From assembly GCA_964413015.1 (NCBI GenBank), contig CAYPQZ010000008.1, forward strand, positions 37,387 to 101,386: a stretch of DNA of 64,000 bases, written 5' to 3'. The DNA is from an uncultured Candidatus Saccharibacteria bacterium. GTDB taxonomy: Bacteria; Patescibacteriota; Minisyncoccia; Portnoybacterales; UBA2143. The notes under the pieces are model-generated. The model was not told where the DNA came from. It ran no database searches and saw only the letters and a program-made list of their open reading frames with translations. Position 1 is the first letter of the stretch, and every line of letters begins with the position of its first letter. Shown here piece by piece: positions 277 through 57,868 of this stretch. Made by a program: the position numbers and the translations under genes.

Positions 277-338
277 GAGGACAGTCTTTTAAATGACGCC
301 CTTGTTCCAAGGGACATCATTTTAAGGACTGTCCTCTA
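277..338. repeat. Palindromic P element copy
   Basis: GAGGACAGTCTTTTAAATGACGCCCTTGTTCCAAGGGACATCATTTTAAGGACTGTCCTC. It lies between the stop of 350..1636 and the start of the truncated gene at 266. Confidence 0.7.
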
Positions 339-349
339 TTAGCTAATTT

Positions 350-1636
350 TTAAGAAATATCTTTTAGAGCACGTCCTTTTAAATGAGACATTCCCAGGAT
401 TACCATTATTAAAGCTAAGACACTAGGACTATAAATAGGTGTTTCAAAAAAACTATGAACTAAGAGATACGTTAAAGAACCAATTAGTCCAATTAGGATA
501 TATTTTTCTTTTTTATGGATTGTCTTTTTTAATTTTAAGAAGATTTGACCAATAGTTCCTAAAAACAACAATAGCCAGATAACTAGGGCGAAGATGCCCA
601 TCTCGGAAAGAATATCTAAATAGAGATTATGGGCGGTAACTGGATTGCGGTAATCAAATTGGGCGTCAACCGTTAAAGCATAATTGCCCAGACCAACGCC
701 CTGCCAGAAATTATCTAGGGCGATTTTGCCAGACTGGCTCCACATTTCCAGGCGTCCCATGTTTGACCCTTCGTTTAAATCAAAAGAAGAATAAAAACGG
801 TCGGCAATCGGAGTGACTGGGATGATGAAAATAAGCAAAACTGAAAGAATCAGTAGTGCCGTTTTTTTATTTCCCAAGTATTTGTAAATCAGAAAGGCCA
901 AAACTATAAAGCTGGTGACAATAGCAAAATAAGCTCCCCTGGCGAAAGTCAGTATTAATGCAAAAAACATCAGGCCAAAATTTAAAAATAGGACTTTTCT
1001 ACTCTTGATTAATAAGGCAAAAGTTATTCCCAGAGGAATGATTAGGCCTAAATAGAACGAGAAAATATGCGGGTCGGAAAAAAGAGAAAAAGTCCTCATT
1101 ACGGTTTGCCCATTAAGATTAACCAATAAACTGGGATAAGCTAAAATCATAGCTCCTAAATTAAATCCGGAGAAAATAGGAATTATATTAGTCGCCCAGA
1201 AAGAATAGAATTTTTCCAAACCAAAAATGAATTGGCATAGGAATTGCAATATGCCGATAAAGGAAAATAGCGCGGTGCTGTAAAACAAAACTGATATAAC
1301 CTTCTTTGTCCTTTCACAGTTATTGATTAAGCCAATGACTAGGAAATACAAGGGGAAAATAGAAGCAAAAAAAACTATTTTCCTTACCCCCCAGAAAATA
1401 TTTTCTGCGTTGATTAAGGAAACAATTGTTAAAGCCAGGAAAGTCAATAGGCAAATTGCGGGCAAATTCTTAAAGTGAAGTTTCGGCATCTTTTTATCAA
1501 TAATGTTTTTAGTCAGATAAAAAGCGAATAGCAAGAGGATAAAAATTCTTAATGAAGCCAAATCAAAACCGGGAACAAGGTTTAAAGCAATCTGGAAAGG
1601 AATATATGAAATTAATAAAAAAAGCCAAGCGTACAT
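350..1636 (-). CDS. Polytopic membrane protein, O-antigen ligase/Wzy-like polymerase family (about 10-12 TM)
   Basis: 428 aa, highly hydrophobic with multiple predicted TM helices and a large loop near the C-terminus, typical of the Wzy_C/O-antigen ligase family. It lies next to a Wzx-like flippase. Confidence 0.5.
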   Translation of the reverse strand: MYAWLFLLISYIPFQIALNLVPGFDLASLRIFILLLFAFYLTKNIIDKKMPKLHFKNLPAICLLTFLALTIVSLINAENIFWGVRKIVFFASIFPLYFLVIGLINNCERTKKVISVLFYSTALFSFIGILQFLCQFIFGLEKFYSFWATNIIPIFSGFNLGAMILAYPSLLVNLNGQTVMRTFSLFSDPHIFSFYLGLIIPLGITFALLIKSRKVLFLNFGLMFFALILTFARGAYFAIVTSFIVLAFLIYKYLGNKKTALLILSVLLIFIIPVTPIADRFYSSFDLNEGSNMGRLEMWSQSGKIALDNFWQGVGLGNYALTVDAQFDYRNPVTAHNLYLDILSEMGIFALVIWLLLFLGTIGQIFLKLKKTIHKKEKYILIGLIGSLTYLLVHSFFETPIYSPSVLALIMVILGMSHLKGRALKDIS

Positions 1637-4238: not shown

Positions 4239-4580
4239 TTAAGGCAGCAGCTTGGCTTTTTTAAACAAACTGGCTAAATTTTCTTTTATTGCCTGATAAT
4301 CTTTTTCTTTTATTTCTGGATTAACCATAACAATTATATCAAACCCGGGCTTCATTTCTTCCAGTTTTAACCTAATTATTTCTTCCAAGCGTCGTTTAAT
4401 TTTATTTCTCTGCACAGCCCTTTTGGAAATTTTGAGACCGATTAAAAAGCCAAATCTGTTTATTGCTAAGTCGTTTTTTAATATTTTAATTTTAATAAAC
4501 TGTTGCTGAAAATATTTTCCCTGTTTGAACGTTTCCTTGAAATCGTTTTCTTCTTTCAGCTTGTATTTTCTGGGCAACAT
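4239..4580 (-). CDS. rnpA: Ribonuclease P protein component
   Basis: 113 aa, basic, with an RnpA-like core (FGFLIGLKISKRAVQRNKIKRRLEEI). It lies between rpmH and yidC. Confidence 0.8.
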   Translation of the reverse strand: MLPRKYKLKEENDFKETFKQGKYFQQQFIKIKILKNDLAINRFGFLIGLKISKRAVQRNKIKRRLEEIIRLKLEEMKPGFDIIVMVNPEIKEKDYQAIKENLASLFKKAKLLP

Positions 4581-4585
4581 AAAAA

Positions 4586-4720
4586 TTAAGCAGTTAGGGC
4601 TTTCCTTTTTTTTCTCCTTCGACTGGATAAAACACGACGGCCATATGAAGTGGCCATTCTTTTTCTAAAGCCGTGAGTTTTTTTTCTTTTTTTCTTTTTG
4701 GGTTTATAGGTGAAAGACAT
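4586..4720 (-). CDS. rpmH: 50S ribosomal protein L34
   Basis: Not in the ORF track (44 aa). Reverse-strand translation gives [44 protein letters not shown], matching the L34 consensus (KRTYQPS..KRK..HGFR.RM.T..GR.VL..RR.KGR). It is in the canonical position upstream of rnpA. Confidence 0.9.
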
Positions 4721-4857
4721 AGCTTTAGATTATCATTTTGAGCTGTAATAGTCAATTAAATAGGCTTTCCCCAAGTATTTCACAGTTTATTAACAAAACT
4801 CTATTTATTTATTTCATCATTGTGATACAATTAAAACATTAAAATTATTAAGGCATT

Positions 4858-6204
4858 ATGAACATCAAAGAGCTCTGGCGAACAGTTTTAGGGGAAATTG
4901 AATTGAATATTTCTAAGGCCAACTTTATTACTTGGTTTAAAAGCACCAAGATTCATTCAAAAAAAGATGGGCTGGTTACAGTCAGTACGCCGAATGGGTT
5001 TACCAAAGAATGGCTGGAGAATAAATACAATAAGCTCATTTTAAAAATTCTCCGTAATAACTCTTTGGATGTTAAAGATGTTAAGTTTATCATTGACGGG
5101 ACGTTCGTTCCAGAAGCTAAAAAAAAGCCAACCCCAGCTTTATCTGATAATCAACTTAACTTACGCGAATGCGCTCTTGATGGAGAAACGAACCTTAATC
5201 AGAAATATAATTTCAATAATTTTATCGTTGGCTCTTTTAATGAATTAGCCCAGGCAGCCAGCCGGGCAGTTGTTAAGCATTTAGGCACGCTTTACAATCC
5301 CTTATTTATTTACGGAGGGGTTGGCTTAGGCAAAACTCATCTTCTTCAGGCAATTGGCAATGAGTTAAACCAAAATCATCCATCTAAAAAGATTAAATAT
5401 CTCAGTTCTGAAAAATTCACCAGTGAATTGATTGATGCTATTTCCAAAAAGGGTATGGACGTCTTTAAAAAAAAATACCATAAAACAGATACGCTAATTA
5501 TTGACGATATTCAGTTTATTGCCGGGAAAGAAAAGACGCAGGAAGAATTTTTTAACGTTTTCAATGCGCTTTATCAGAAAAATAAGCAAATTATTATTAG
5601 CTCGGATCGTCAGCCTAAGGCGATTTCAACTTTGGAGGAGCGTCTGCGTTCCCGTTTCGAAGGAGGCATGATTGCTGATATCAGCTGTCCTGATTTGGAA
5701 AGCAGAATTGCCATTTTGCGGAATAAAGCTAAAGAGAAAAATATTAAGATTGGCGATGATGTCCTGAATTATATCGCCGCCAATATCCAGAAGAATATTC
5801 GAGAATTGGAAGGGGGCCTTAACAGGATAATTGCTTTTACTCAGATACATGGGGTTGATCCGGATATTAAAACAGTCTCTAAAATATTGTCTCAGATAAT
5901 TAATGCCCCTAAGAAAATGACCAATTTAAAAACGATTATTAAGGTCGTTTCCGATTTTTATGACGTTAATAGCAGTGATTTGATAAATCATTCTCGAAAA
6001 AAAGAATTGGTTAAACCGCGACAGGTGAGCATGTATTTAATTCGAAAAGAATTAAACGGCTCCTATCCTTTTATTGGTGAAAAATTGGGCGGCCGTGACC
6101 ATACCACGGTAATCTACGCTTTCCGTAAGATAGATAGAGAGGTCCAGAATAGCGAATCTTTCCAACATGAAATAAATTTGATAAAAGAACGGTTGTATAA
6201 TTAG
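4858..6204 (+). CDS. dnaA: Chromosomal replication initiator protein DnaA
   Basis: 448 aa with an AAA+ Walker A (GGVGLGKTHLLQAIGN), sensor motifs and a C-terminal DNA-binding helix (VKPRQVSMYLIRKEL). It is divergent from rpmH and followed by dnaN. Confidence 0.95.
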   Translation: MNIKELWRTVLGEIELNISKANFITWFKSTKIHSKKDGLVTVSTPNGFTKEWLENKYNKLILKILRNNSLDVKDVKFIIDGTFVPEAKKKPTPALSDNQLNLRECALDGETNLNQKYNFNNFIVGSFNELAQAASRAVVKHLGTLYNPLFIYGGVGLGKTHLLQAIGNELNQNHPSKKIKYLSSEKFTSELIDAISKKGMDVFKKKYHKTDTLIIDDIQFIAGKEKTQEEFFNVFNALYQKNKQIIISSDRQPKAISTLEERLRSRFEGGMIADISCPDLESRIAILRNKAKEKNIKIGDDVLNYIAANIQKNIRELEGGLNRIIAFTQIHGVDPDIKTVSKILSQIINAPKKMTNLKTIIKVVSDFYDVNSSDLINHSRKKELVKPRQVSMYLIRKELNGSYPFIGEKLGGRDHTTVIYAFRKIDREVQNSESFQHEINLIKERLYN

Positions 6205-6206
6205 TA

Positions 6207-6273
6207 TTTCGTATCTTGCCCGCCTACAACGCTTTAAGCGTAGCGATTATGGGCAGGTATCTCGTATATTAGT
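6207..6273. repeat. Structured element in the dnaA-dnaN spacer (repeat family R2 copy)
   Basis: GTATTTCGTATCTTGCCCGCC...ACGCTTTAAGCGT (perfect palindrome)...GGGCAGGTATCTCGTAT. It has flanking near-direct repeats TATTTCGTAT / TATCTCGTAT. Confidence 0.5.
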
Positions 6274-6293
6274 TATTATTTATTACAAAAAAT

Positions 6294-7430
6294 ATGCAAA
6301 TAATTTGCCTGCAGGAAAATTTAAAATACGCTTTAAACATTGTTGAGCGGATTATCGGCAGGAATTTAACTTTGCCAATACTTAATAACCTTCTTCTGTC
6401 AGCCGAAAAGAATAAATTGAAAATATCTTCAACCAATTTGGAAATAGGCATCAATTGCTGGGTGTCGAGTAAGGTTCAAGCTAAAGGAAGTATTACGGTG
6501 CCGGCCAGATTAATCAGCGAGTTTGTTAATAACTTGCCTAATAAAAAGATTGAGTTGAAAACTAAAGACGGGAACTTGGAGATAAAATGCGAAAAATTCA
6601 AAGCGGTCTTCAAGGGTCTGCCGGCTGATGATTTCCCACTTATCCCCAAAATTAAAAACGATCCTTTGATAAAAATCCAAGGCAATCATTTAAGAAACGC
6701 TTTCTCTCAAGTGGTAGAAATGTCTTCTATGTCCGAATCAAGGCCTGAAATTTCCGGTATTTTTATGAAATTTGAGGATGGCTCAATTAGGCTGGCGGCC
6801 ACCGACAGTTTCCGGCTGGCCGAGAAGACTCTTCGCCTCGACCCAAATTCATTGAGCAAAGTTTCTAAAGAGCAATCTTTAATTATCCCTCAAAGAACTA
6901 TCCAGGAATTAATCAGGATTCTTTCAGAAAAAGACGGCTTGGCTGACAAACAAGAAACAGAAGCGGAAATAGTTTTATCAGGTGGCCAGGCACTGTTTGA
7001 TTTAGGTCAGACTCAGGTTATTTCCAGATTAATTGACGGCCAATATCCGGACTATCAGCAGATTATCCCTGACAAAACTCAAATACAGGTAGTGGTTAAT
7101 CGTCAGGAAATTATTAATAATATTAAAATAGCCAGTTTATTCAGCGGAAAAATTAATGACGTCAAGATTTCTATAAACCCCGAGAAGTCATTAATAGAAA
7201 TTTCTTCAAAAGATATTGATATTGGGGAGCATAAATCCCAGATTAAAACGAAAATTGAAGGCAAGGCGAAAGTCGAAATTATCTTCAATTACCGATATCT
7301 TCTAGATGGGCTCAATAACATCTTAAGCGACAAGGTTGTTTTAGGATTAAACGACAGTGCCAGTCCGGTAACCGTCAGGCCGGTTGGCGATACCAGCTAT
7401 ATCTATCTCGTCATGCCAATTAAGGTTTAG
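6294..7430 (+). CDS. dnaN: DNA polymerase III beta sliding clamp
   Basis: 378 aa with three-domain clamp architecture, starting MQIICLQENLKYALNIVERII. It is immediately downstream of dnaA. Confidence 0.9.
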   Translation: MQIICLQENLKYALNIVERIIGRNLTLPILNNLLLSAEKNKLKISSTNLEIGINCWVSSKVQAKGSITVPARLISEFVNNLPNKKIELKTKDGNLEIKCEKFKAVFKGLPADDFPLIPKIKNDPLIKIQGNHLRNAFSQVVEMSSMSESRPEISGIFMKFEDGSIRLAATDSFRLAEKTLRLDPNSLSKVSKEQSLIIPQRTIQELIRILSEKDGLADKQETEAEIVLSGGQALFDLGQTQVISRLIDGQYPDYQQIIPDKTQIQVVVNRQEIINNIKIASLFSGKINDVKISINPEKSLIEISSKDIDIGEHKSQIKTKIEGKAKVEIIFNYRYLLDGLNNILSDKVVLGLNDSASPVTVRPVGDTSYIYLVMPIKV

Positions 7431-7487: not shown

Positions 7488-8038
7488 TCTCCTTGCTTCA
7501 AGAAATTTATTATTGATTGGTAAATTTTATCAGATTTTGGATGATAATGTTTTTGAGTTTCTAAACATTCAATTATTTGAGAATGGAACATTTTCAAATA
7601 ATTTTCTTGGTCTATTCCGTCTAAAGGATTGCTAGTCTTGCCTGCAAGAAAATTATTATAAGCTCTGCCCCATCTTGGCATATCATATTTAACTAAGACT
7701 CTAGGCATTTTGTTATAGTCAATAATTTGCCCTTTATCGTCGTGCTCTATGACCAAAGGCTCTTTAATAATCTTTTTTATTTTCTCTTTTTGTCTTTCAG
7801 GGTCTGATGTGTCAGTAATGTCAATCGCTAATCTTGAACCGTTTGATAAGTCCATAATTATGTCAAAGCGACCTTCTATCTGATCATCGTACTTTGAACT
7901 TTCTTGAATAGATTCGCATCCCGGGATATTTTCGAGAACGTTAGCGACCATTTTTTCTCCAGCATCGTTGCCGAATTCTTTAGGATATTCTTTGATTTGG
8001 GCATCTTTTTGAGGAAAATTTTCAAATGCGTTTAACAT
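7478..8038 (-). CDS. Hypothetical acidic protein, co-operonic with PBP1A
   Basis: 186 aa ORF, 1 nt downstream of the PBP1A stop on the same strand. I recognised no family. Confidence 0.4.
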   Translation of the reverse strand: MLNAFENFPQKDAQIKEYPKEFGNDAGEKMVANVLENIPGCESIQESSKYDDQIEGRFDIIMDLSNGSRLAIDITDTSDPERQKEKIKKIIKEPLVIEHDDKGQIIDYNKMPRVLVKYDMPRWGRAYNNFLAGKTSNPLDGIDQENYLKMFHSQIIECLETQKHYHPKSDKIYQSIINFLKQGDKK

Positions 8039-8039
8039 A

Positions 8040-10568
8040 TTATTGATAATGGATAGTTATTTCATCCTCTTGTCGATTAAGGACTTGGTCGTAGGCACGG
8101 ACTTTAATAGTTTGCCTATCCGAATCTATCAAATAAGGGGATGCGCTGATGGTAATTGAATACGGTTGGGTAGTATCGGTGCCAACCAAATTGTCATTAA
8201 AGAAGAAATCCACCTGTTTGATGCCTAATTTGGCCTGGGCCGAGGCCTGGATAAATAAGGTAGGTTCAGATATTGAGCTATTCTTCTTGGGAAGTTTAAT
8301 TTCTACCTCCGGTTGGTTCTCTAAAATATGGATGTCGTCGTATTGACTGATGATATTCCGGTTGTAACAAGTTTGTCCGTTACATGGCTGGGATCTTGCC
8401 CATTCTAAAACAGAGGTTTCCCAATTCTGGAATTGAGAATCTTCGGCCGGATTTTCAGGATAGTCGCCTAAAGGATCTGTTTTGTCTACATAATAGAGAA
8501 TAGAATGAGCTTCCTGGTAAATCTTTTCTTCAATTAAGTCAGGAGGAGTTAAATCGGTTGCTAATTTGCCGGAAATTTTGTCAATTTCAATTTTATTTTG
8601 GAAAGCAATTTGTCCATTAAGCATGGGTTTTTCAATTTTTTCGCTTATTTCGGGCGGAGTGAAGTATTCTGTCTTTCCCGGTAGTAAAAATGGGGATAGT
8701 TCTTCAAAATAAGTGGCTGTTCCCATTTCTGATTTTTTCGCTTCATAGGCCTTAAGCATAAAGTCGTTCCAGATGGGCGCTGCTACATAAAGGCCGGCTG
8801 CGCCCAGCCGCATTTTGTCTTTAAAATCATTGTTGCCGGCCCAAACTCCGGCTACCAAACTTGGCGTATATCCGATAGTCCAGCCGTCGCTGTAATCTTG
8901 AGTGGTCCCGGTTTTGGCAGCCGCCGGAATGCCCGGCAGGTAGAGTTTTGAATAAGAGCCCATCATGGGTGCCCGGGCCGATTCGTCGGAAAGGATATTA
9001 CTGATTTGACGAGCTACCTGTTGGCTGAGAACGCGTGTTTCTTTGTCTTTGCGCTCTTCCAGAATATTACCTTGGGCGTCTTCTATTTTAATGATTAAAT
9101 TTGTCGGATGCTTAATTCCCTCATTGGCGAAAATTCCGTAAGCGGCAGTTTCATCTAAAAGCTTGATCTCGCCGCCGCCTAAAACTAAAGATAGATTGTA
9201 TCGGCCGCGGTCCTTAAGAGTAGTAATCCCCATATCTTGAGCTAAGTCAATTGTTTCCTGAATACCGGCCAAATAAAGAGTTTTAACTGAAGTTAGGTTA
9301 ACTGATTGCGCCAAAGACTGCCTCATGGTGATCGGGCCGCGAAATTTTAAGTCATAGTTATTCGGCGAATAATCCTTGCCGTTTCCGGGGCCGAATTTAC
9401 CGAAGCTAGTTTGCAAGTCAAACAAAATAGTTTCAGGAGTGTATCCTTTTTCAAAAGCAACTGCGTAAGCAAACGGCTTGAAAGAAGAACCGGGCTGGCG
9501 ATAGGGGCTGGTAGCTACATTGAATTGGTCTTCTTCATATCTTTTTGAACCTACCAAAGCCAGCACTTGGCCAGTTTTAGGGTCAATAGCCACTAAGGCG
9601 GCATTAGTCGCCCGATAATTTTCTTTGTTTTTTTCAACTCCCTCGGCAACAGCCTGTTCGGCAATTTCCTGTAATTCCCAGTCTAAGGTGGTATATACTT
9701 TTAACCCGGCCATATTAATGTCGGTATAAGTTCGGCTGTACTTTTCTTCCAAATATTCCTTAATCATAGCGATAAAATGGTGCGCTTTGAGGTCGGATTG
9801 AGAGGCGTATTCTAATTTTTCCTCTTTAGCTTGTTCAAGCTGTTCTTGGTTGATGTAATTAAATTCAGCCATGCGTTCTAAAACGCGTTGCTGTCGTTCT
9901 TCGAGCTCTTTCGGATGAGATCCGTAAGGAGAATAGTAGCTGGGCGCCTGAGGAAGAGCGGCTAAAAGGGCTGATTCGGCCAGGGTTAATTCGGGAACTG
10001 ATTTTTCAAAAAAGGTCTGGCTGGCTGCCTCAATCCCATAGGCGTTTGAACCGTAAGGTACCTGATTAAGATAAAACTCGAGAATTTCGTCTTTGGAATA
10101 TTTTCTTTCCATTAAGAGAGCTAAAATAGCTTCCTTAATTTTTCGGGTAAAGGTTCTTTCTGAATTAGGGCCTCCTAAATAGGCATTTTTAATAAATTGT
10201 TGAGTTATAGTGGATCCGCCTTGGGAAATTTCTTTGCCGGTCAAGTTTGACCAAGCGGCTCTTAGAATACCTCGCCAGTCCAGACCGAGATGATGGTAAA
10301 AATTGTCGTCTTCAATAACTATGGTGGCATCTTTGACGAATTTGGGAATTTTTTCAAAATCAATCACGGTTCTTTTCTCTTCGTCGTGAATGTCATAAAG
10401 AATAATTTTTCCGGTCCGGTCGTAAATTTTGGTTGATTCAACTATTTGACGCTGGCTGATTTTGCTTGGGTCAGGCAAATCTTTGGCAAAATAGGCAACT
10501 AGACCAATTATTGAAATAATTGCGACGACAAAGATAAAAAGCGCAAATTTTAACAATTTCTTCAACAT
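8040..10568 (-). CDS. Class A penicillin-binding protein (PBP1A: glycosyltransferase GT51 + transpeptidase) with C-terminal Ig-like extension
   Basis: 842 aa with an N-terminal TM anchor, GT51 motifs (IEDDNFYHHLGLDW, GGSTITQQFIKN), a transpeptidase SxxK region (SSFKPFAYA) and KTGT (AAAKTGTT). Confidence 0.85.
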   Translation of the reverse strand: MLKKLLKFALFIFVVAIISIIGLVAYFAKDLPDPSKISQRQIVESTKIYDRTGKIILYDIHDEEKRTVIDFEKIPKFVKDATIVIEDDNFYHHLGLDWRGILRAAWSNLTGKEISQGGSTITQQFIKNAYLGGPNSERTFTRKIKEAILALLMERKYSKDEILEFYLNQVPYGSNAYGIEAASQTFFEKSVPELTLAESALLAALPQAPSYYSPYGSHPKELEERQQRVLERMAEFNYINQEQLEQAKEEKLEYASQSDLKAHHFIAMIKEYLEEKYSRTYTDINMAGLKVYTTLDWELQEIAEQAVAEGVEKNKENYRATNAALVAIDPKTGQVLALVGSKRYEEDQFNVATSPYRQPGSSFKPFAYAVAFEKGYTPETILFDLQTSFGKFGPGNGKDYSPNNYDLKFRGPITMRQSLAQSVNLTSVKTLYLAGIQETIDLAQDMGITTLKDRGRYNLSLVLGGGEIKLLDETAAYGIFANEGIKHPTNLIIKIEDAQGNILEERKDKETRVLSQQVARQISNILSDESARAPMMGSYSKLYLPGIPAAAKTGTTQDYSDGWTIGYTPSLVAGVWAGNNDFKDKMRLGAAGLYVAAPIWNDFMLKAYEAKKSEMGTATYFEELSPFLLPGKTEYFTPPEISEKIEKPMLNGQIAFQNKIEIDKISGKLATDLTPPDLIEEKIYQEAHSILYYVDKTDPLGDYPENPAEDSQFQNWETSVLEWARSQPCNGQTCYNRNIISQYDDIHILENQPEVEIKLPKKNSSISEPTLFIQASAQAKLGIKQVDFFFNDNLVGTDTTQPYSITISASPYLIDSDRQTIKVRAYDQVLNRQEDEITIHYQ

Positions 10569-14339: not shown

Positions 14340-14430
14340 AGAGTATTAATTTTTAATTTTCAATTACGATTAGATAAATTCTTATTTAAAAATTGAGTTA
14401 TTAAAATTTATTAAAAATTAAAATTAAAAA

Positions 14431-14901
14431 TTATTTTGTGCTGTGGGCGCAACAAATGGCGGTCGCTAAAGCGTCTGCTGCGTCATCTGGCTTGGGAATT
14501 TCTTTCAGATTAAGCAGCAACTTAACCATTTTTTGGACTTGTTTTTTTTCAGCCCGTCCATAACTAGTGACTGCCTGTTTAATCTGCAGGGGGGTATATT
14601 CGTCTATTAAAACCTTCATTTGTGACGCCCGGGAAAGGATGACTCCTCGTGCCTGGCTTACCTTAACAACTGTTTTAGCATTTTTAAAAAAGAAAATATC
14701 TTCAACAGCTACTTTATGCGGTTGGTACTCTTTAATTAAATCAGTTAGTTTTTGGTCTATCTGTTTAAGCCTTTCGGCGGTAGAAAATTTTGGCTCCGTT
14801 CTGATACAACCATAATCAATCATTGCCAAGTTGTCATTTTCTTTTTCAATGATCCCGTAGCCGGTTATAGCTGTGCCAGGGTCAATCCCCATAATTATCA
14901 T
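14431..14901 (-). CDS. ruvC: Crossover junction endodeoxyribonuclease RuvC
   Basis: 156 aa with an N-terminal IMGIDPGTAITGYGI and catalytic acidic residues (ADALATA near the C-terminus). It lies in the ruv/yebC neighbourhood. Confidence 0.9.
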   Translation of the reverse strand: MIIMGIDPGTAITGYGIIEKENDNLAMIDYGCIRTEPKFSTAERLKQIDQKLTDLIKEYQPHKVAVEDIFFFKNAKTVVKVSQARGVILSRASQMKVLIDEYTPLQIKQAVTSYGRAEKKQVQKMVKLLLNLKEIPKPDDAADALATAICCAHSTK

Positions 14902-14940
14902 AAATTTTCAATGAAATAAATTCTTCTTGTTGTTTAAAAA

Positions 14941-14987
14941 TTAGAAATTAAGATTTATTTACAAAATTAAAAATTAAAAATTAAAAA
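14941..14987. repeat. AT-rich repeat (TAATTTTTAATTTTTAATTT.TAATTTT.TAAATAAATCTTAATT family)
   Basis: The minus-strand reading of 14941-14987 matches the plus-strand reading of 28301-28352, including the exact 16-mer TAAATAAATCTTAATT. A related AAAATT-periodic tract lies at 14341-14430. Confidence 0.5.
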
Positions 14988-15527
14988 TTACTTCAGATTG
15001 CTGTATATTTCCTGGATATCTTCGTTATCTTCCAAAGCCTCAAAAAGCTTTTCTGTTTGAGCTTTAATTTTAGAGTCGGCTATTTCCATTGGATATTTTG
15101 ATTTCCAGGAATCGTTCTGTTTATCAAAGAGGTATTTAACGCTTCCAGCTTCGGCCAGCTTGCCGCCGAATCGGCTTAAAATATGTTTTATTTCAGCCAA
15201 AGTCCGATTTTTGTTGTCAGTAATTCCTTCAATAATTAAAGCTGTCCCGTTTGGGCCGTAGGCCTCGTAAACGACTTCTTCTATATTAACTCCCTGAGCT
15301 TGCCCAGACCCGCGCTTAATCGCCCGTTCAATGTTATCTTTGGGCATATTGGCCTCTTTGGCCTTTTCGACAGCTAATTTCAGTTTGGGGTTTGTTTCTA
15401 AATCCGGCCCCTTTTCTTTCACGGCAACGCTAATTAAGCGGGACAATTTGCTGAAAATTTTGCCCCGCTTAGCATCCGCAGTTCCCTTTTTATGTTTTAT
15501 CGACGACCAGTGGGAATGTCCACTCAT
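14988..15527 (-). CDS. yebC: YebC/PmpR family DNA-binding transcriptional regulator
   Basis: 179 aa starting MSGHSHWSSIKHKKG, the YebC hallmark. It is upstream of ruvC as in many bacteria. Confidence 0.9.
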   Translation of the reverse strand: MSGHSHWSSIKHKKGTADAKRGKIFSKLSRLISVAVKEKGPDLETNPKLKLAVEKAKEANMPKDNIERAIKRGSGQAQGVNIEEVVYEAYGPNGTALIIEGITDNKNRTLAEIKHILSRFGGKLAEAGSVKYLFDKQNDSWKSKYPMEIADSKIKAQTEKLFEALEDNEDIQEIYSNLK

Positions 15528-15635
15528 ATATTTATACCTTAATGATACTATTGATTAAAAAGGAGTGTCAATGGATAGATGGAATAAAGGACAGTTTAAA
15601 AATTTAAGGACTGTCTTTTAATTAATCGCTTATTT

Positions 15636-21215: not shown

Positions 21216-21602
21216 TTTTGTTTTTTATCCAATTACCTTAATTTTAACTTATTTAAATTCCCGGGTCAATTATTTGCAAGAGTGATAAAGAAGGGTTTTT
21301 TAATTGACCAAAACTGGCCGCAAAGGTATGATTGAAATAGATAAAAATCTAAAAAAAAGAACAAAAGAGAATTATCTTTAAAATGATGCTCATTACGCAG
21401 CAAGGATGTCATTTTAAGGATGATGCTTCTGGATTAATGCCCAAAAAAAACAAAATCAGCGATATTCCATTAGCAGACCGTCCCCGCGAAAAAATAAAAG
21501 AAAAATCTTTTGGGATAATTCAAATTTTAAGGGAAATTAACAAGTATTTATTTTTAATTTGGCTACAATTCGGCTAGGCGATAACCGAATGAGTTTTTAT
21601 AA

Positions 21603-27924: not shown

Positions 27925-27949
27925 AGTTTTTGATTATTGTGTAATTCCT

Positions 27950-28283
27950 TGGAGATGGCGGGAATCGAACCCGCGTCTAAAAGGCATTTCTTAATAATTC
28001 TACAAGCTTAGCTTGATTTGGATAAAATTAAAAACTTAAAACCAAGCAAAAAATTTTTAATTTTTGTTTCTAAGATTCAACAATCAGCTGAAACCTTCCG
28101 ATTGTTTATCCTGATAGGATAACACCCAAAGCTTTTCATCAGGAGTCAAAAGTTCGGATGGCTACTTATTTAAGCAGTAGCAAAAGCTAAATTTTCGTTA
28201 GCAATTATTAGTTTGCGAGATTAACGAGTTCGCGCTCGGCTTGCTTATTAAAAAAAGAACTTTTATCGATGCCTGGCATCCCC
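27950..28283 (-). ncRNA. ssrA: tmRNA (ssrA)
   Basis: Reverse strand: the 5' GGGGAUGCCAGGCAUCGA pairs with the 3' ...GACGCGGGUUCGAUUCCCGCCAUCUCCA (tRNA-like T-arm + acceptor). The internal tag frame GCU AAC GAA AAU UUA GCU UUU GCU ACU GCU UAA (ANENLAFATA*) parallels ANDENYALAA. It lies immediately downstream of smpB. Confidence 0.75.
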
Positions 28284-28300
28284 ACATTTTCGCTCCGCGA

Positions 28301-28352
28301 AAGAATTTTTAATTTTTAATTTCTAATTTTTAAATAAATCTTAATTCTTGAA
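28301..28352. repeat. AT-rich repeat copy between ssrA 5' end and smpB stop (opposite orientation to the 14941 copy)
   Basis: TAATTTTTAATTTTTAATTTCTAATTTTTAAATAAATCTTAATTC. Confidence 0.5.
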
Positions 28353-30587: not shown

Positions 30588-33500
30588 ATGGAACCACTTC
30601 CTAAAATAGAAAAAAGAATATTGAAATTTTGGCAGAAAGAGAATATTTTTGCCAAATCAGTTAAGCTTCGTCAAAAGAAGCCATTTTTTAGTTTTTACGA
30701 CGGCCCGCCTTTTGCGTCCGGCTTGCCTCATTACGGCCATATTTTAGCCAGTACAATTAAAGATACTGTTTTGCGCTATTGGTCTATGAAAGGCCGACAT
30801 ATTTTTTGGCGAGTCGGCTGGGATTGTCACGGACTACCGGTGGAAAATATGATTGAACAGGAATTAGGTCTGAAAAATAAAAAGGATATTGAAAAATTCG
30901 GGATTAAGAAATTCAATCAAGCCTGCCGTCAATCGGTTTTTCGCTGTATTAATGATTGGTATAAGTTTTTTAATCGGATTGGCCGCTGGTCTAATTTTTC
31001 CCAGGCCTACGCCACTCTGGACAATGAATATATTGAATCGGCTTGGTGGGTTCTTAAGCAATTATGGGAAAAAGATTTGGTCTATCAGGATTTTAGGGTT
31101 ACCCCTTATTGCCCGCGCTGCGGAACTCCTTTGTCTAATTTTGAATTAAATCAACCCGGCGCTTATCGGCAGGTTGAAGACGAATCTGTTTATCTTAAAT
31201 TTAAACTTAAAAAATCGACCAATACTTATTTATTAGTTTGGACGACTACTCCTTGGACTTTAGCCGCTAACACGGCTGTCGCTGTTAGCCCGGATTCCCA
31301 ATATGTCAAAGCCAAACGAGGCAATGAATATTTAATTTTAGCTAAGGAGAGGTTGTTGGTTTTAGAGGATTATAAAATCGTTGATCAATTTCCCGGTCAG
31401 GAATTAATCGGCCGGGAATATCAGCCTCTCTATCCGATGAAATTGGATAAAGCGGGTTACCGGGTTGTTCCGGCTGACTTTGTTTCAATAGAAGACGGGA
31501 CCGGTTTGGTCCATATTGCGCCAACTTTCGGTGAGGAAGATATGGAATTAGGCCAGAAAGAAAATCTGCCCGGACTGATTACCGTTGACCAAGAAGGCAA
31601 GGTAGTCAAGGGTTTGGGTATCCCCGGTCAGGGCAAGTTTATCAAAGAGGCCGATGCTGATATTAAAGCCGATTTAAGGAAAAGAAATTTATTATTCCGA
31701 GCGGAAAAAATTACTCACGCTTATCCTTTCTGCTGGCGTTGCGAAAGCCCCTTGCTGTATTATCCGATTAACAGTTGGTATGTGAAAGTAACTAAATTTA
31801 AGAAAGAATTAGTGAAGAATAATAAAGAAATCAAATGGGTTCCTGGCCATTTGAAAAAAGGCCGTTTTGGCAAATGGTTAGAAGGGGCGCGCGATTGGTC
31901 TATTTCCCGAAATCGTTATTGGGGAGCGCCGATTCCTATCTGGCAGTGTCAGAAATGCGGCCGAGTTGAAGTCATAGGCAACTTGCAGGAAATGGCTCTT
32001 CGGACCAAACGCAACTGTTACTATATTCTGCGTCATGGCCAGACAGTTAATAACCTGAAAAAAATAATTTATACCGACCAAGAAAACAAACAGAGGCCGT
32101 TAACTCAAGCAGGTCGGCGCAAGATTAAATGGCTAATTCCTAAGCTCAAAAAAACCAAAATAGATTTAATTTTTACTTCTGATTTTTTTAGAACTTCCCA
32201 AACTGCTTCTATAATTAGTCAGGCCTTGGATATCAAAGTAATTTATGACAAACGCTTGCGTGATGTGGATGTGGGTTTATTTAAAGGCAAATCTATAAAA
32301 GAATATCATACTTATTTTCAGGATAATAATTTGAAAAGATTCCAAGAGAAAGCTCCCGGTGGCGAGAATCTCAAACAGGTCAAAAAAAGAGTGATGAATT
32401 TTCTCTTGGCGGTTGATAAAAAATACCGGCACAAAAACATTCTGATTATCAGTCACGGTGATCCACTTTGGATTCTCAAGGGAGCCAGCCAGGGATTTAA
32501 CAATGAGCGGTTGGCCAAGAACAGAAATAAAGAACTTGTTCAACCCGGCCAATTAGAAACGCTTAAGTTTAAAAAACTTCCTTTTGACCAGGAAGGCAAC
32601 TTGAATTTGCATCGGCCTTATGTTGATCAGTTAGAGATTCCCTGCCCTTGCGGCGGAATCATGACTAGGACTTCCGAGGTTTTTGACTGTTGGTTTGAGT
32701 CAGGCTCAATGCCTTACGGTCAGTGGCATTATCCTTTTCATAATAAAAAGTTGGTGGAAAAGGCCTTCCCGGCTGATTTTATTGCTGAAGGTATGGACCA
32801 GACGCGAGGCTGGTTTTACACTTTGCATGTTTTGGCAACCGCTCTGACCTTGAAAAATATTGGCTTAGGCAAAAACAAGCCGGCTTTTAAAAATGTTATT
32901 GTAAACGGTTTAGTTTTAGGCGAAGACGGCAAGAAGCTTTCCAAGCGTTTAAAAAATTATCCTGACCCGGAAATTGTTTTTGACAAATATGGAGCAGATG
33001 CTCTGCGCTATTATTTATTAACTAGTACACCGATGGGCGAGGACTATATTGCTTCAGAAAAAAGAATTGCCGAAACTTTTCGCCGGACTATTTTAACTTT
33101 TTGGAATTCCTTTACTTTTTTGGAAACTTATACGGATAAAGAATGTTTAGCGCCCAAATCAGTCCAGCCAAAAAATATTTTGGATAAATGGATTATTTCC
33201 CGGCTCAATTCTCTCAATCAGGAGCTAGTCAATTGGCTGGATAAATACGAACTGACTAAGGCTGCTCGTTTACTTGACGAATTTTTGGACGATTTTTCCA
33301 ATTGGTATGTTCGGCGTTCCCGCCGCCGTTTTCAAAGGCCTAATAATCCGATTGAAAAAAAAGAGGCCGAACAAATTTACTCTTTTGCCCTTTTGCGCTT
33401 AGCTAAATTGTCGGCTCCTTTTATTCCCTTCTTAACCGAAGAAATTTATCAACATTTAGAAAAGGGAACTTCGGTCCACTTATGTGATTATCCAAAGCCG

Positions 33501-34013
33501 GATAAAAAATTAATTGACAAACGGTTGGAAGAAAAAATGTCGCAGTTACGTCAATTAGCCGCTGAAGGATTGGCCCAAAGAGCTAAAGACGGAATTAAAG
33601 TTAGACAGCCGTTGAAAAAAATGACAATTAATAACAAGTTGATAGCGGCTGGCAAAGAATTGGCCGGTTTGTTGGCTGAAGAAGTCAATGTCAAAAAAAT
33701 TGTTTTGGGTAAAAGCATTAGTCTGGATACTAAAATTAGCCCGGCTCTTAAAGCTGAGGGGACTATTCGCGATTTAGTCCGTTCAATTCAGGAAATGCGC
33801 AAAGACGGCGGGTTAAAGCCGCAGGACAAAATTTATCTGCGCTATTCAACAGATTATTCTTTAAAAAAATTGATTCAGAAAAACGAATTGATTATTAAAG
33901 CGGAAGTTTCAGCCAGACAAATAGAAGAAGCCACTAAAAGAAAAGAAGTTTTTCTGGTCGAAAGAGAAGTTAAGTTAGATGGGCAGAAAATCTGGCTGGG
34001 GATTAAGAAATAA
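30588..34013 (+). CDS. ileS: Isoleucyl-tRNA synthetase (type 2) with embedded histidine phosphatase (PGAM-like) domain
   Basis: 1141 aa with HIGH (PPFASGLPHYGHIL) and KMSKS (KLSKRLKNY). An insert of about 170 aa (approx aa 470-640) carries LRHGQT...SDFFRTSQTA...ISHGD, the RHG/His-phosphatase signature. Confidence 0.9.
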   Translation: MEPLPKIEKRILKFWQKENIFAKSVKLRQKKPFFSFYDGPPFASGLPHYGHILASTIKDTVLRYWSMKGRHIFWRVGWDCHGLPVENMIEQELGLKNKKDIEKFGIKKFNQACRQSVFRCINDWYKFFNRIGRWSNFSQAYATLDNEYIESAWWVLKQLWEKDLVYQDFRVTPYCPRCGTPLSNFELNQPGAYRQVEDESVYLKFKLKKSTNTYLLVWTTTPWTLAANTAVAVSPDSQYVKAKRGNEYLILAKERLLVLEDYKIVDQFPGQELIGREYQPLYPMKLDKAGYRVVPADFVSIEDGTGLVHIAPTFGEEDMELGQKENLPGLITVDQEGKVVKGLGIPGQGKFIKEADADIKADLRKRNLLFRAEKITHAYPFCWRCESPLLYYPINSWYVKVTKFKKELVKNNKEIKWVPGHLKKGRFGKWLEGARDWSISRNRYWGAPIPIWQCQKCGRVEVIGNLQEMALRTKRNCYYILRHGQTVNNLKKIIYTDQENKQRPLTQAGRRKIKWLIPKLKKTKIDLIFTSDFFRTSQTASIISQALDIKVIYDKRLRDVDVGLFKGKSIKEYHTYFQDNNLKRFQEKAPGGENLKQVKKRVMNFLLAVDKKYRHKNILIISHGDPLWILKGASQGFNNERLAKNRNKELVQPGQLETLKFKKLPFDQEGNLNLHRPYVDQLEIPCPCGGIMTRTSEVFDCWFESGSMPYGQWHYPFHNKKLVEKAFPADFIAEGMDQTRGWFYTLHVLATALTLKNIGLGKNKPAFKNVIVNGLVLGEDGKKLSKRLKNYPDPEIVFDKYGADALRYYLLTSTPMGEDYIASEKRIAETFRRTILTFWNSFTFLETYTDKECLAPKSVQPKNILDKWIISRLNSLNQELVNWLDKYELTKAARLLDEFLDDFSNWYVRRSRRRFQRPNNPIEKKEAEQIYSFALLRLAKLSAPFIPFLTEEIYQHLEKGTSVHLCDYPKPDKKLIDKRLEEKMSQLRQLAAEGLAQRAKDGIKVRQPLKKMTINNKLIAAGKELAGLLAEEVNVKKIVLGKSISLDTKISPALKAEGTIRDLVRSIQEMRKDGGLKPQDKIYLRYSTDYSLKKLIQKNELIIKAEVSARQIEEATKRKEVFLVEREVKLDGQKIWLGIKK

Positions 34014-34020
34014 GGTAATT

Positions 34021-34139
34021 AAAGGACGTTAAAAAATTTAAGGATTGTCATTAAGGATCACGTCCCTTTGCTGCAGGCGAAGGGCGTGTCCGCCTATCCG
34101 CCCCTGGAGGGAAAGGACGACTCCTTAAATTTTGACAAG
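34021..34139. repeat. Composite palindromic repeat module A (left copy), in inverted orientation relative to 42461..42575
   Basis: About 115 bp nearly identical to the reverse complement of 42461..42575. It contains the internal hairpin CCCTTTGCTGCAGGCGAAGGG. Confidence 0.7.
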
Positions 34140-34149
34140 AACAAGCAGA

Positions 34150-34211
34150 TAAGGGCAGTCTTTAAAATTACGCCCTTGTGCTCAAGGGACATAATTTTAA
34201 GGACTGTCCTT
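34150..34211. repeat. Palindromic P element copy (AAGGRCAGTCTTTAAAATTACGCCCTTG...CAAGGGACATAATTTTAAGGACTGTCCTT)
   Basis: About 60-bp imperfect hairpin. The same family occurs at 277..338, 55744..55803 and 57931..57990, with short relatives at 15587..15620 and 56803..56832. Confidence 0.7.
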
Positions 34212-34252
34212 ATGCTGCGGTAATTCTTAAATTTTTTAAAGGGACATTATTT

Positions 34253-34825
34253 GTGCTTTATAAAACCCAAGGGATTATTATTAAAAGGAACAATTTGGGC
34301 GATTTTGACCGTCTGCTGACTGTCTATACCGGACATTTTGGCAAGATCCTATTGAAAGGTAAGTCAATTAGGAAGAATCAATCAAAACTAAAAGGGCATT
34401 TGGAGCTTTTTTCTTATGTTGATTTATTAATCGCTCCCGCCCGCAATGCTTTACGTAGCGATACGGGCGGGCCTGTCCGGAGATTGGATGTTATAACCGG
34501 AGCGGAGACGATTGAAAGCTTTCATCGGCTCCGCAAAAACTTGCCTTCTTTGTCAGCCACATATTATCTTTCAGAATTGACTGATAAAATGGTCATTGGT
34601 TCAGAGAGAGATGAAAATGTCTGGCCGACGCTTTTATCCAGTTTCCGGGAACTTAATCGACCAAGCCAGAATATTAAAGCTGTTGTTAGTAATTTTGAAA
34701 ACAAATTATTGGAATTTTTGGGATATGGCCATCAAAAAAATCCACTTAATTTTATTGAGTCATTTTTAAGGGAGAGCTTAAATTCAAAGCATTTTTTACA
34801 AGAAGCTTTTTATCTGTTAGAATAA
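34253..34825 (+). CDS. recO: DNA repair protein RecO (short form)
   Basis: The N-terminal OB-fold region (GIIIKRNNLGDFDRLLTVYTGHFGKILLKGKSIRK) is RecO-like. The ORF-track start at 34178 lies inside the P repeat. The GTG at 34253 gives a canonical RecO N-terminus. Confidence 0.55.
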   Translation: MLYKTQGIIIKRNNLGDFDRLLTVYTGHFGKILLKGKSIRKNQSKLKGHLELFSYVDLLIAPARNALRSDTGGPVRRLDVITGAETIESFHRLRKNLPSLSATYYLSELTDKMVIGSERDENVWPTLLSSFRELNRPSQNIKAVVSNFENKLLEFLGYGHQKNPLNFIESFLRESLNSKHFLQEAFYLLE

Positions 34826-42427: not shown

Positions 42428-42435
42428 ACAATAAT

Positions 42436-42575
42436 CAAAAGACAGTCCTTATTTGTTTGCCCCTTGTCAAAATTTAAGGAGTCGTCCTTTTCCTCCAGAG
42501 GCGGACAGGCGGACACGCCCTTCGCCTTCGGCGAAGGGACGTGATCCTCAATGACAATCCTTAAATTTTTTAAAG
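42436..42575. repeat. Composite palindromic repeat (partial P' + module A', right copy, inverted relative to 34021..34211)
   Basis: The reverse complement of 42461..42575 matches 34021..34139 with a handful of substitutions, including a change that converts a U-G wobble into a perfect 9-bp stem (CCCTTCGCCGAAGGCGAAGGG). Confidence 0.7.
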
Positions 42576-42631
42576 AATGGTGATTAGAACAACTTGAAAA
42601 TAGGTTTGGGATAAGGTATCATAATTTAAGC

Positions 42632-54845: not shown

Positions 54846-55726
54846 GATTTAAAATTTAAATTAAGTTCTTCTAAAATGTCTTCGGTTTGGGAAACTAATT
54901 TAGCTCCCATTTTAATAAGCTGGTTGGGGCCGAGAGAATTTGGGGAAAGGATAGAACCGGGAATTGCAAACACCTCTCGGTTCTGTTCTAAGGCGTTCCG
55001 GGCGGTAATTAAAGCGCCGCTTTTTTCCGGAGCTTCAATAACTAAGATACCTAAGCTTAAGCCGGAAATAATCCGGTTGCGCTGGGGGAAATTCTGGGCC
55101 AGCGGCTTGGCGCCGATTGGAAATTCACTGATAACGGCTCCGTTTTGAATAATCTCTTCAGCTAATCCTTGGTTGACAAAGGGATAAATACTGGCTTGGT
55201 CTATCCCGGACCCTAAAATGGCGACAGTCCGTTGATTTGTCTCAAGGGCGGTCCGATGGGCAATCGTATCAATACCTTTAGCCAGGCCGCTCACAATAGT
55301 TAAGCCGGACTTGGATATTTCTTTGGTGATTAATTTAGTAATTCTACTGCCGTATTCGGATGATTTTCTGGTGCCGACAATACCCAAATACCTGTCAGCT
55401 GGTTTTAATTCACCGCGGACATAAAGCGTGGCCGGCGGAGCGTATATTTCCTTGAGCAGTTTAGGGTAATTCTTGTCCTGAATGGTAATCAAGCTGATTC
55501 CATGTTTATCCAACTTTTCCATTTCCCAATCAGGATTAATTTTATAGCGTTTTTTTCTAATTTGTTCAAGGGCTGATTCGGTTAAGCCGGCCTTTTTAAG
55601 TTCTTTAACATCTGCTGACCAGGCTTTGCCCAGAGATTTAAAGTAGGCGAGCAGTTTTTTAAACCCGACGGGACCGATTCCGCCGATTAAGTTAAAGGCG
55701 TTGAAATATTTGGCTTCTTGAGGCAT
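54842..55726 (-). CDS. dprA: DNA processing protein DprA (Smf)
   Basis: 294 aa with a Rossmann-like motif (GIVGTRKSSEYGSRITKLITKEISKSGLTIVSGLAKGIDTIAH). Confidence 0.85.
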   Translation of the reverse strand: MPQEAKYFNAFNLIGGIGPVGFKKLLAYFKSLGKAWSADVKELKKAGLTESALEQIRKKRYKINPDWEMEKLDKHGISLITIQDKNYPKLLKEIYAPPATLYVRGELKPADRYLGIVGTRKSSEYGSRITKLITKEISKSGLTIVSGLAKGIDTIAHRTALETNQRTVAILGSGIDQASIYPFVNQGLAEEIIQNGAVISEFPIGAKPLAQNFPQRNRIISGLSLGILVIEAPEKSGALITARNALEQNREVFAIPGSILSPNSLGPNQLIKMGAKLVSQTEDILEELNLNFKS

Positions 55727-55743
55727 AATCTAGGAAGTTTGAC

Positions 55744-55803
55744 AAGGACAGTCTTTAAAATTACGTCCTTGTTCCAAGGAGCATAATTTTAAGGACTGTC
55801 CTT
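55744..55803. repeat. Palindromic P element copy (about 20 bp upstream of the dprA start, abutting a consensus promoter)
   Basis: AAGGACAGTCTTTAAAATTACGTCCTTGTTCCAAGGAGCATAATTTTAAGGACTGTCCTT. Confidence 0.7.
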
Positions 55804-55813
55804 TAATTAGGGG

Positions 55814-56791: not shown

Positions 56792-56818
56792 ATGTTTATA
56801 AGGAAGGTCTTTAGAAAT

Positions 56819-57868
56819 TTAAGGACTATCCTTGATTGCTTCTTTAATATACTCTTTGATTTCTCCATAGTTTCCTTGTCCTTCTTTTGGATAAACAACC
56901 GAAGCTCTTTGTTCTCCGAACATTAATTGTCCACCGACTAACAGATTAGTTTCTTTTTTATCAATTACCAAGCTAACTATTTTATCTGCTCCGATATCTT
57001 TAGCTGTTTGCCAAAGCGACTTTATCTTTAACAAGCTCAAGTCGGTTTCAATATGGTCGTTTAGAGAATTAAAAATTTTCAGGTAAGTCGGAAAATCCCA
57101 GAGTGGATTTAAGGACAGAACTTTTTGCTTGATAAGCTGGATAATCTGCTGCTGTCTGGCCATTCTGTCAAAATCTCCGTTAGGAGAGGTATATCGTGTG
57201 CGGACATATTTAAGAGTTGTTTCGCCGTCTAAGTAACGCCAACCGGCCGAAAGGTTGAAAGCCTGATAGGAATAATTAGGGCCGGGGAAATAGGGGTCTT
57301 GGATATCCTGCGGCACATAAACATTCAGGCCGTCAATTACTTCAATAACTTCTTTAACCACAGCTAGGTCAACAATTACGTGATGGTCAATAAACAATCC
57401 AGTAATCTCTTGTATTTTTTCCTTAAGGCATTCAATCCCACATCTGGCATAAAGCGAATTTATTTTCGTCAAAGCTTCCTGACCGGGAATTCTAACCAGC
57501 AAGTCGCGAGGCAGAGAAATTAAAACGGCTCTTTCCTGATTCGGTATTAAGTGTGCCAGAATGATAGTATCAGTTAATTTTTGTCCGGAATATCCGGCAC
57601 CCGGACGGCCGAGAACTAAAACATTGGTAGCCAATACATCTTTTTTATCAGCTAGCGAAATTGGGATTAAATTGATAGCTATTTTGTTTTTGTCTGTATC
57701 TTGATTGGCGGAAATTTCAATTGAAGAAGATGGGATTAATTGAAAAATTAAGATTATGGAAGAAGCCACAAGCAAAACAAAAACAACTAAACAGGCAATT
57801 TTCATTTTTCTTTTGTTCTCTTCGCGGCGTTTTTTTTCTAAGAAATTAATTTGTTTAGCTTGAGACAT
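56819..57868 (-). CDS. LytR-CpsA-Psr (LCP) family cell-envelope phosphotransferase
   Basis: 349 aa with an N-terminal TM and an LCP core (NVLVLGRPGAGYSGQKLTDTIILAHL ... YVRTRY). Confidence 0.8.
   Translation of the reverse strand: MSQAKQINFLEKKRREENKRKMKIACLVVFVLLVASSIILIFQLIPSSSIEISANQDTDKNKIAINLIPISLADKKDVLATNVLVLGRPGAGYSGQKLTDTIILAHLIPNQERAVLISLPRDLLVRIPGQEALTKINSLYARCGIECLKEKIQEITGLFIDHHVIVDLAVVKEVIEVIDGLNVYVPQDIQDPYFPGPNYSYQAFNLSAGWRYLDGETTLKYVRTRYTSPNGDFDRMARQQQIIQLIKQKVLSLNPLWDFPTYLKIFNSLNDHIETDLSLLKIKSLWQTAKDIGADKIVSLVIDKKETNLLVGGQLMFGEQRASVVYPKEGQGNYGEIKEYIKEAIKDSP

Follow-up and report, generated by a model that had tools for sequence, protein, structure and literature searches.

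Nested palindromic repeats at gene boundaries of a Patescibacteria genome: a probable family of non-autonomous mobile elements

The hallmark of REP elements and their RAYT partners is a 5' GT[AG]G tetranucleotide next to an imperfect hairpin of 20 to 40 nt, the RAYT being a Y1 transposase. The small, streamlined genomes of episymbionts are usually assumed to be nearly repeat-free. Three described groups of small palindromic repeats are relevant here: REP/BIME elements, which are extragenic palindromes found after stop codons and make no target duplication; Rickettsia palindromic elements (RPEs), which are inserted in frame in genes and have no known transposase; and the Correia, SPRITE and ERIC elements, which are MITEs and among the closest analogues of the repeats described below (PMC10969869). 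In the literature open to searching, we found no description of the present motif or of palindromic repeats in bacteria of the candidate phyla radiation (CPR).

Here we analyzed a stretch of 64 kb (the window), part of a 284-kb metagenome contig, from a genome close to Candidatus Portnoybacteria; according to the Pfam and JGI gene tables it is compact, with 91% coding sequence and 38.7% GC. Its hairpins are, in our assessment, very probably copies of a non-autonomous mobile family of nested palindromic repeats of Patescibacteria, and we classify this family as a new one of a known kind of selfish repeat, the MITE-, REP- or RPE-like mobile palindromes. The copies and the blocks to which they belong are as follows.

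277..336: intact long copy of 60 nt, between two minus-strand Wzy-like genes; -36.4 kcal/mol, z -8.4; 73.9 bits
15587..15618: short form (half box, AT spacer, box); 22.2 bits with the covariance model
21367..21428: decayed full-length copy in a divergent spacer; 41.6 bits with the covariance model
34014..34252, plus strand: composite insertion block of 239 nt, between the ileS stop and the recO GTG
34029..34139, plus strand: GC-rich second module of 111 nt, 94% identical to the inverted copy 42463-42573
34151..34211: intact long copy of 61 nt; -35.6 kcal/mol; 73.2 bits
42432..42573, minus strand: block of a single box (42438-42450) and the inverted 111-nt module (42463-42573)
55718..55809, minus strand: insertion block of 92 nt in the ancestral dprA 5' end, delimited by alignment with the related loci L072 and L073
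55744..55803: intact long copy, 17 nt before the dprA ATG
56800..56833: short form with two boxes that overlaps the stop codon of LCP and precedes the pth start by 8 nt; 27.9 bits
57893..57990: short form (57893-57928) and decayed long copy (57934-57990), between the divergent LCP and lepB promoters

An earlier note on this DNA had reported four long copies, and all four are present where it put them, now delimited as 277-336, 34151-34211, 55744-55803 and 57934-57990. The short relatives that it saw near 15587 and 56803 are real as well (22 and 28 bits); the one it placed at about 21400-21425 exists, but is a decayed full-length copy rather than a short one. It had missed the short forms 34017-34052 and 57893-57928, the box 42438-42450, the 111-nt module and the self-palindromic nature of the termini.

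That these sequences form a repeat family with shared termini, as had been claimed, is borne out by box counts against shuffled sequence and by covariance-model E-values. The 13-bp box AAGGACnGTCCTT has 8 matches with at most one mismatch in the 64-kb window versus 0.15 expected, and the 10-mer AAGGACAGTC, also with at most one mismatch, has 20 versus 2.0 +/- 1.4 in shuffles. A covariance model made from 27 family members and run over the window gave the three intact copies E-values of 1e-16 to 1e-19 (67-79 bits); it also matched 57897-57990, where a short form and a decayed copy lie, and gave marginal matches at 42438-42489 and 42550-42585. All of its matches in the window lie outside genes or at gene edges. 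Could ordinary, unrelated terminators simply look alike by chance? The AT-rich genome context is the one point in favor of this explanation, which is refuted by the shuffling controls, by the E-values just given and by identical 60-mers in different MAGs, and to which we assign almost no probability. A scan of the whole window at Rfam gathering thresholds returned only a tmRNA (146 bits) and one tRNA, at 27949-28283 (minus strand) and 48621-48704 (minus strand), and left the element unmatched. An Rfam E-value scan of 33950-34300 gave only spurious miRNA and snoRNA matches far under the gathering thresholds, and such scans of two regions returned nothing relevant to the element.

The elements are palindromes built of palindromes. 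Each terminus is by itself a 6-1-6 palindrome, and a long copy has the layout (C)AAGGACnGTCCTT(G), AAAAT, a variable GC-richer stem-loop of 6-10 bp, ATTTT and the inverted box. Terminal inverted repeats are present in the sense that the entire element is palindromic, the terminal 13-18 nt being inverted copies of each other, and the flanks, mostly C...G, lengthen the palindrome. The invariant portion consists of the 23-nt palindrome ATTTTAAGGACnGTCCTTAAAAT; substitutions in the variable inner stem-loop are fully compensatory (e.g., GACGTCCTTTTGCAAAAGGACGTC, TACATCCTTGGGACAAGGATGTA and GATTTCCTTAAGGAAGTC). Family members are about 60 bp long, with variants of 36-103 bp, and the short forms, the single-box forms and the linked 111-nt module are variants or remnants of the long copy. 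The canonical long form has 60 nt, a multiple of three, and two of its three frames are open through the box. On the plus strand the loop orientation is the same in all long copies of the window (n = 4), which we considered as a possible replication-strand bias; however, many related copies are perfect palindromes with no orientation, and GC skew does not switch at dnaA.

Three copies form a hairpin of about 28 bp on both strands (-33 to -36 kcal/mol, z about -8 to -9). The claim that every copy forms a long hairpin is true of these three but not of 57934-57990, which folds poorly (-6.3 kcal/mol, z -0.75, no long hairpin). In the 27 family sequences, pairing extends to 93.7% of cells, and double changes are seen at 10 of 27 pairs, so the compensatory changes that had been noted earlier are real; of the RNA-level or protein-binding function that was read into them, the former is not borne out by the folding energies, which show no asymmetry between sense and antisense (sense favored in 12, antisense in 8, neither in 10). 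Because of this symmetry, the data point to a DNA palindrome, rather than a strand-specific RNA, as the conserved feature.

The individual copies differ in their state and composition. The decayed copy 21367-21428 belongs to a subfamily with a GCGTAGC-type loop and a GATGCTTCTGGATTAA tail that is also found in L015, L057 and L070 (we number the element-bearing and syntenic loci from other contigs with an L). The block 34014-34252 is made up of the short form 34017-34052, the 111-nt module (34029-34139), the long copy (34151-34211) and, at about 34219-34250, an inverted short form that has degenerated. The 111-nt module recurs beside long elements in L028, L035 and L026, and both of its window copies are attached to boxes. 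TAATTA is present on both sides of the composite 57893-57990. A common end sequence had been reported for most copies; TAATTAG does follow the copies ending at 55803 and 57990 and no others, and TATTAG follows the one ending at 336. Pairwise identity among the window copies is only 63-90%, so that a sign of very recent activity is absent.

With regard to neighboring genes, the copy 277-336 begins 13 nt after the stop of 350..1636 and is followed 10 nt later by the ATG at 266. The short form 15587-15618 is located between a ComEA-like gene, whose stop is 17 nt away, and yebC, which starts 59 nt further on, and the block 42432-42573 begins at most 10 nt from the metG stop. Every window copy is extragenic or overlaps gene ends, and none is intragenic and in frame. 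The earlier note had every copy 0-50 bp upstream of a start codon. Numerically this is about right (10, 41, 17, 48 and 59 nt), but at 91% coding it is uninformative, and the co-directional window copies are likewise 3-17 nt past a stop codon.

Comparison with syntenic relatives revealed how the copies came to be there. We located syntenic loci through DprA and RecO homologues: L072, L073, L074 and L075, whose DprA is 87%, 80%, 73% and 66% identical to that of the window, and L077, found through RecO (75% identity) and located on the contig of L072. These loci keep the gene order and lack the elements at the orthologous sites compared, five of which are empty among L072-L075 and L077; L073, L074 and L077 contain no boxes over about 20 kb each. 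The corresponding intervals are as follows.

ileS stop to recO start: 1 nt in L077, 239 nt in the window
metG to tatD: 6 nt in L073, 204 nt in the window
LCP to pth: 2-5 nt in the relatives, 27 nt in the window
lepB to LCP: 58 nt in L073 and 81 nt in L074, 170 nt in the window

Because the orthologous sites of the relatives are empty, the elements are lineage-specific insertions and not conserved operators. At the level of sequence, these alignments demonstrate that the copies were inserted in this lineage only, at gene boundaries and mostly just past stop codons. L072 retains a degenerate short form at the lepB-LCP site, and the insertion there is therefore older than those at dprA and between ileS and recO.

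The dprA insertion can be dissected to the nucleotide. After ancestral codon 7, a block of 92 nt was inserted that consists of TAATTA, the 60-mer and 26 nt, and the start codon of dprA in the window, the ATG at 55726-55724, is inside this block. As a result, the DprA N-terminus reads MPQEAKYFNAF in the window and MTEFVNP(K/E/Q)AKYFNAF in the relatives. The 26 nt at 55718-55743 (GTCAAACTTCCTAGATTATGCCTCAA, minus strand) provide the new start codon, and only their initial GTCAAA fits the usual extension of the element. We considered that the element brings its own start of the type ATG-YYT-CAA (dprA ATGCCTCAA, Wzy-like ATGCTTCAA, LCP ATGTCTCAA), which other copies do not support. The orphaned ancestral dprA codons survive because they double as the -35 region and spacer of a divergent sigma-70 promoter at 55814-55841, TTGACA-16-TATAAT, a perfect match (12/12).

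The ileS-recO insertion has also affected gene annotation. The public JGI call for RecO, P0121 (34178-34825, 215 aa), takes as its start a GTG within the palindrome and reads through the element, which illustrates an annotation hazard. Orthologues of 178 aa and the position of the RecO_N domain indicate that the true recO start is the GTG at 34253, and the misannotation is caused by the open frames of the element.

The family extends well beyond the window. Scans of sequence collections recovered the element from two further MAGs and from 64 stretches of metagenome DNA. In these Patescibacteria contigs, the elements are 83-100% identical while their flanks are unalignable, and different MAGs share identical 60-mers. 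The metagenome loci were picked by an 18-mer from the element, so the family-wide statistics are biased to intact boxes. Other architectures include a single box that centers a longer palindrome, two-box forms of 36 and 43 nt and forms of about 100 nt whose loop carries an insertion. In the box dialects AAGGCCCGGCCTT, AAGGAGTCTCCTT and AAGGCACGCCCTT the layout is unchanged, and AAGG-N5-CCTT boxes with CCCGG, AGTCT and CACGC occur with the same architecture in L046, L040 and L075. One GC-rich dialect copy lies after topA in L075 (13316-13372, 54.7 bits). Copies span the range from intact to decayed, with clusters and nested composites. The earlier suggestion of a REP- or MITE-like nature is supported by this scatter over other Patescibacteria contigs, together with the orthologous spacers that lack elements. 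Presence/absence polymorphism within the species was not seen; the L002 and L003 copies are identical.

Where do the copies sit? Among the 69 unique classifiable sites, 43 are in tandem, 6 in divergent and 4 in convergent spacers, and 16 are inside ORFs. The spacer ratio of 43:6:4 matches the background of 422:68:75; the family has no preference for spacers that carry promoters or terminators. Of 42 elements in tandem spacers, 34 are nearer to the stop of the preceding gene than to the next start; the median distances are 5 nt to the stop and 36.5 nt to the start, and in 17 cases the ORF terminates within the element. Together with the 16 intragenic sites, this contradicts the preferential placement before starts that the earlier note had seen. 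The strong tendency to sit 0-10 nt past stops could reflect selection for a function at 3' ends.

The intragenic copies are all from contigs other than the window. In-frame copies are present in RecG (L016), a MiaB-like protein (L017), MiaA (L062), a Wzy-like protein (L011) and GT2 (L040/L046), several of them within conserved enzyme domains. The inserts add 12-20 residues inside conserved enzymes of relatives, and the MiaB-like radical-SAM enzyme has 10 extra residues relative to PDB 7mjz. The boxes in the L040 epimerase were rejected as a clean insertion, as the alignment with PDB homologues shows no extra length.

These positions bear on the possibility that the elements are retained because they were co-opted in cis, as inter-cistronic, bidirectional intrinsic terminators, stabilizers of mRNA 3' ends or RNase III sites. 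A role of this kind has been suggested for REP, SPRITE and Correia elements. In its favor, the inner stem with its trailing ATAATTTT scores as terminator-like on either strand, the hairpins have high stability, the copies lie close to stops in the tandem spacers, and dnaK is bracketed by two elements in L039. However, the T-run, just 4 nt long, is itself paired with the A-run upstream of it, there is no enrichment in convergent spacers, folding energy has no strand bias, and the same junctions work without elements in relatives, with spacers of 1-6 nt. The in-frame copies tolerated in RecG, MiaB and MiaA are also hard to square with efficient termination or cleavage. We consider co-option in cis unlikely, and the earlier reading of the start-proximal position as that of a co-opted terminator, processing site or operator is unsupported, given the short spacers of the relatives and the background-like spacer classes.

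A second functional explanation holds that the 13-bp box binds a dimeric host protein, such as a global regulator, a nucleoid or partition protein or a DNA uptake receptor, so that the copies mark a regulon or reflect biased uptake. In its favor, the AT-flanked box forms a perfect 6-1-6 palindrome and is conserved across divergent genomes much more strongly than the flanks; sigma-70-like promoters (55814-55841 and 58005-58032) lie just downstream of several copies, the neighbors include dprA, recO and a ComEA-like gene, and the window has no canonical parS. However, syntenic relatives have the same genes, parAB, dprA and recO included, and no boxes; the copies come as insertions of 60-240 nt and not as point-mutational motifs; and the neighboring genes are functionally mixed, with copies equally common past stops and within genes. 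In addition, the box varies yet remains palindromic, and its density, about 0.2 per kb in the window and zero in the relatives, is unlike that of DUS or USS. We regard a protein-binding signal as very improbable. A parS-like centromere was rejected specifically, because canonical parS is absent from both the window and the loci and the relatives with parAB have no boxes. An internal promoter was rejected as well: TTGACA often adjoins the box, but no -10 hexamer follows at 16-18 nt.

The reading as a mobile family raises the question of how the elements move. No direct repeat flanks the 32 unique elements, and target duplication is absent in both exact comparisons of filled and empty sites (ileS-recO and dprA). 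TTAA, TA and TAATTA were rejected as target duplications; TAATTA brackets only 57893-57990 and follows 55803, and the metagenome flanks are C...G. According to the Pfam tables, the 64-kb window encodes no transposase, integrase, RAYT or recombinase and contains only housekeeping genes. None of the intervals between paired elements contains a transposase (the L007 interval has ksgA and hypothetical genes, the L039 interval dnaK), and no transposase or recombinase recurs among 516 ORFs from about 0.5 Mb of element-bearing loci. A parent IS with matching ends was not seen in the window, between element pairs or in the 516 ORFs, nor was a RAYT gene in the 64 kb plus flanks of about 20 kb. Two other vehicles were dismissed, phages because the 18-mer has 0 matches in viral contigs and integron attC or cassette arrays because the neighbors are housekeeping genes in conserved synteny.

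We hypothesize that the family is mobilized in trans by an enzyme encoded elsewhere, which would recognize the palindromic boxes or the hairpin or cruciform that they form, and that it spreads without making a target-site duplication. Palindromy would be preserved for propagation, or be restored by template switching within the palindrome. The inner hairpin with its T-run resembles a weak bidirectional terminator, and the stem of about 28 bp would be a substrate of the RNase III type in read-through transcripts; some effect on neighboring genes is thus plausible. Such effects would be a by-product and not the reason for the presence of the element, since empty sites exist in relatives and intragenic copies are tolerated. 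A regulatory role of the elements is unproven.

Which of the described systems does the family resemble most? Like RPEs, the elements are small palindromes in a reduced genome with no linked transposase, found between genes and in frame in unrelated housekeeping genes, to which they add a short peptide; palindromes in frame within unrelated protein genes were found in related contigs and not in the window. Unlike the present family, with its self-palindromic AAGG-N5-CCTT boxes, length of about 60 bp and host phylum Patescibacteria, RPEs are about 100-150 bp long and alphaproteobacterial. With REP/BIME the family has in common imperfect extragenic palindromes that are often clustered, mostly lie just past stops, have compensatory stems and make no target duplication. 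It differs in that its elements are about twice as long, nearly perfect and of low copy density, begin with (C)AAGGAC and lack the conserved 5' GTAG/GTGG head (GT[AG]G); furthermore, they are not strictly extragenic, about a quarter of the unique sites being in ORFs.

The Correia/NEMIS, ERIC and BOX/RUP/SPRITE elements are likewise non-autonomous, with terminal inverted repeats, lineage-specific presence or absence, promoter-adjacent insertion and nesting; they also give long transcript hairpins that RNase III can cut and, in the case of SPRITE, terminator-like cores. Of the features that define MITEs, terminal inverted repeats and presence/absence between related genomes were found, and target-site duplication was not. 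Unlike bacterial MITEs, the family makes no duplication of TA or another target and has no visible parent IS with matching ends, and its elements are one whole palindrome, with no internal promoter detected, and not terminal repeats around a unique core. The inverted pairs of Neisseria DUS and Pasteurellaceae USS resemble it in being short conserved motifs that different species have in common and that, often as inverted pairs, form hairpins after genes, including DNA repair genes. The density is, however, 5-50 times lower here; the boxes are absent from close relatives, arrive as block insertions and, in the window, rarely occur as an isolated motif in coding sequence.

It is possible, but on balance doubtful, that all these copies belong to a Patescibacteria-wide superfamily of nested palindromes with covarying AAGG-N5-CCTT boxes, without target duplication or linked transposase and in frame in essential genes, which is moved by a hairpin- or cruciform-specific enzyme or by DNA uptake and recombination. 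If so, RPE-like selfish DNA would be present in protein-coding genes within the CPR and could be among the sources of the unusual insertions seen in proteins of these organisms. The family is of moderate interest for its host phylum and its RPE-like behavior. It has reshaped gene boundaries, with a new dprA start codon, ileS and recO split apart and the divergent lepB and LCP promoters pushed away from each other, and it would represent a second, independent case of the Rickettsia phenomenon of palindromes inside genes. The copies are also a useful marker of strain and lineage history.

The loci contain a number of other features. Downstream of the promoter 55814-55841, a structured RNA of about 140 nt is predicted at about 55852-55989 on the plus strand (-75.7 kcal/mol, z -8.1). 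In this region (55814-56015, plus strand), it precedes a small ORF (56016-56267) that has a strong Shine-Dalgarno sequence; the RNA is also present in L072, L073 and L075 as a conserved feature, has no Rfam match and, as modeled, may be an unclassified leader or small RNA. L075, from a Portnoybacteria relative, has a CCCCGCACCTATTAAGGAC...GTCCTTAATAGGTGCGGGG palindrome within this RNA (9742-10000) and another palindromic insertion, GTCATTCTAAGCGAAACGAAG...CTTCGCTTCGCTCAGGATGAC, between lepB and LCP (7927-8107). The lepB promoter of the window, TTTACT-16-TAGAAT (58005-58032), reaches to within 6 nt of the ATG at 58039, a spacing that points to a possibly leaderless lepB mRNA; LCP has TACAAT a few nucleotides before its ATG at 57868.

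At the edge of L073 (1-1226), a bAvd-like gene and a split reverse transcriptase ORF, absent from the window, look like a diversity-generating retroelement. A histidine-phosphatase (His_Phos_1) domain, residues 479-642, lies within the catalytic domain of the isoleucyl-tRNA synthetase encoded upstream of recO (30588-34013, plus strand, 1141 aa); the orthologue of this synthetase in the closest relative, L077 (943 aa), has no Pfam match to His_Phos_1, which makes this a lineage-specific domain insertion. The window encodes parAB (48769-50430) yet contains no canonical parS, even when up to 3 mismatches are allowed. At 4239-7430, rnpA/yidC on the minus strand and dnaA/dnaN on the plus strand form a cluster typical of a replication origin region; GC skew is positive throughout the window, with no switch at dnaA. 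Two spacers, 14395-14993 and 28299-28346, carry AT-only repeat tracts of the type TTAAAAATTAAAAATTAAAA, which also match each other in inverted orientation.
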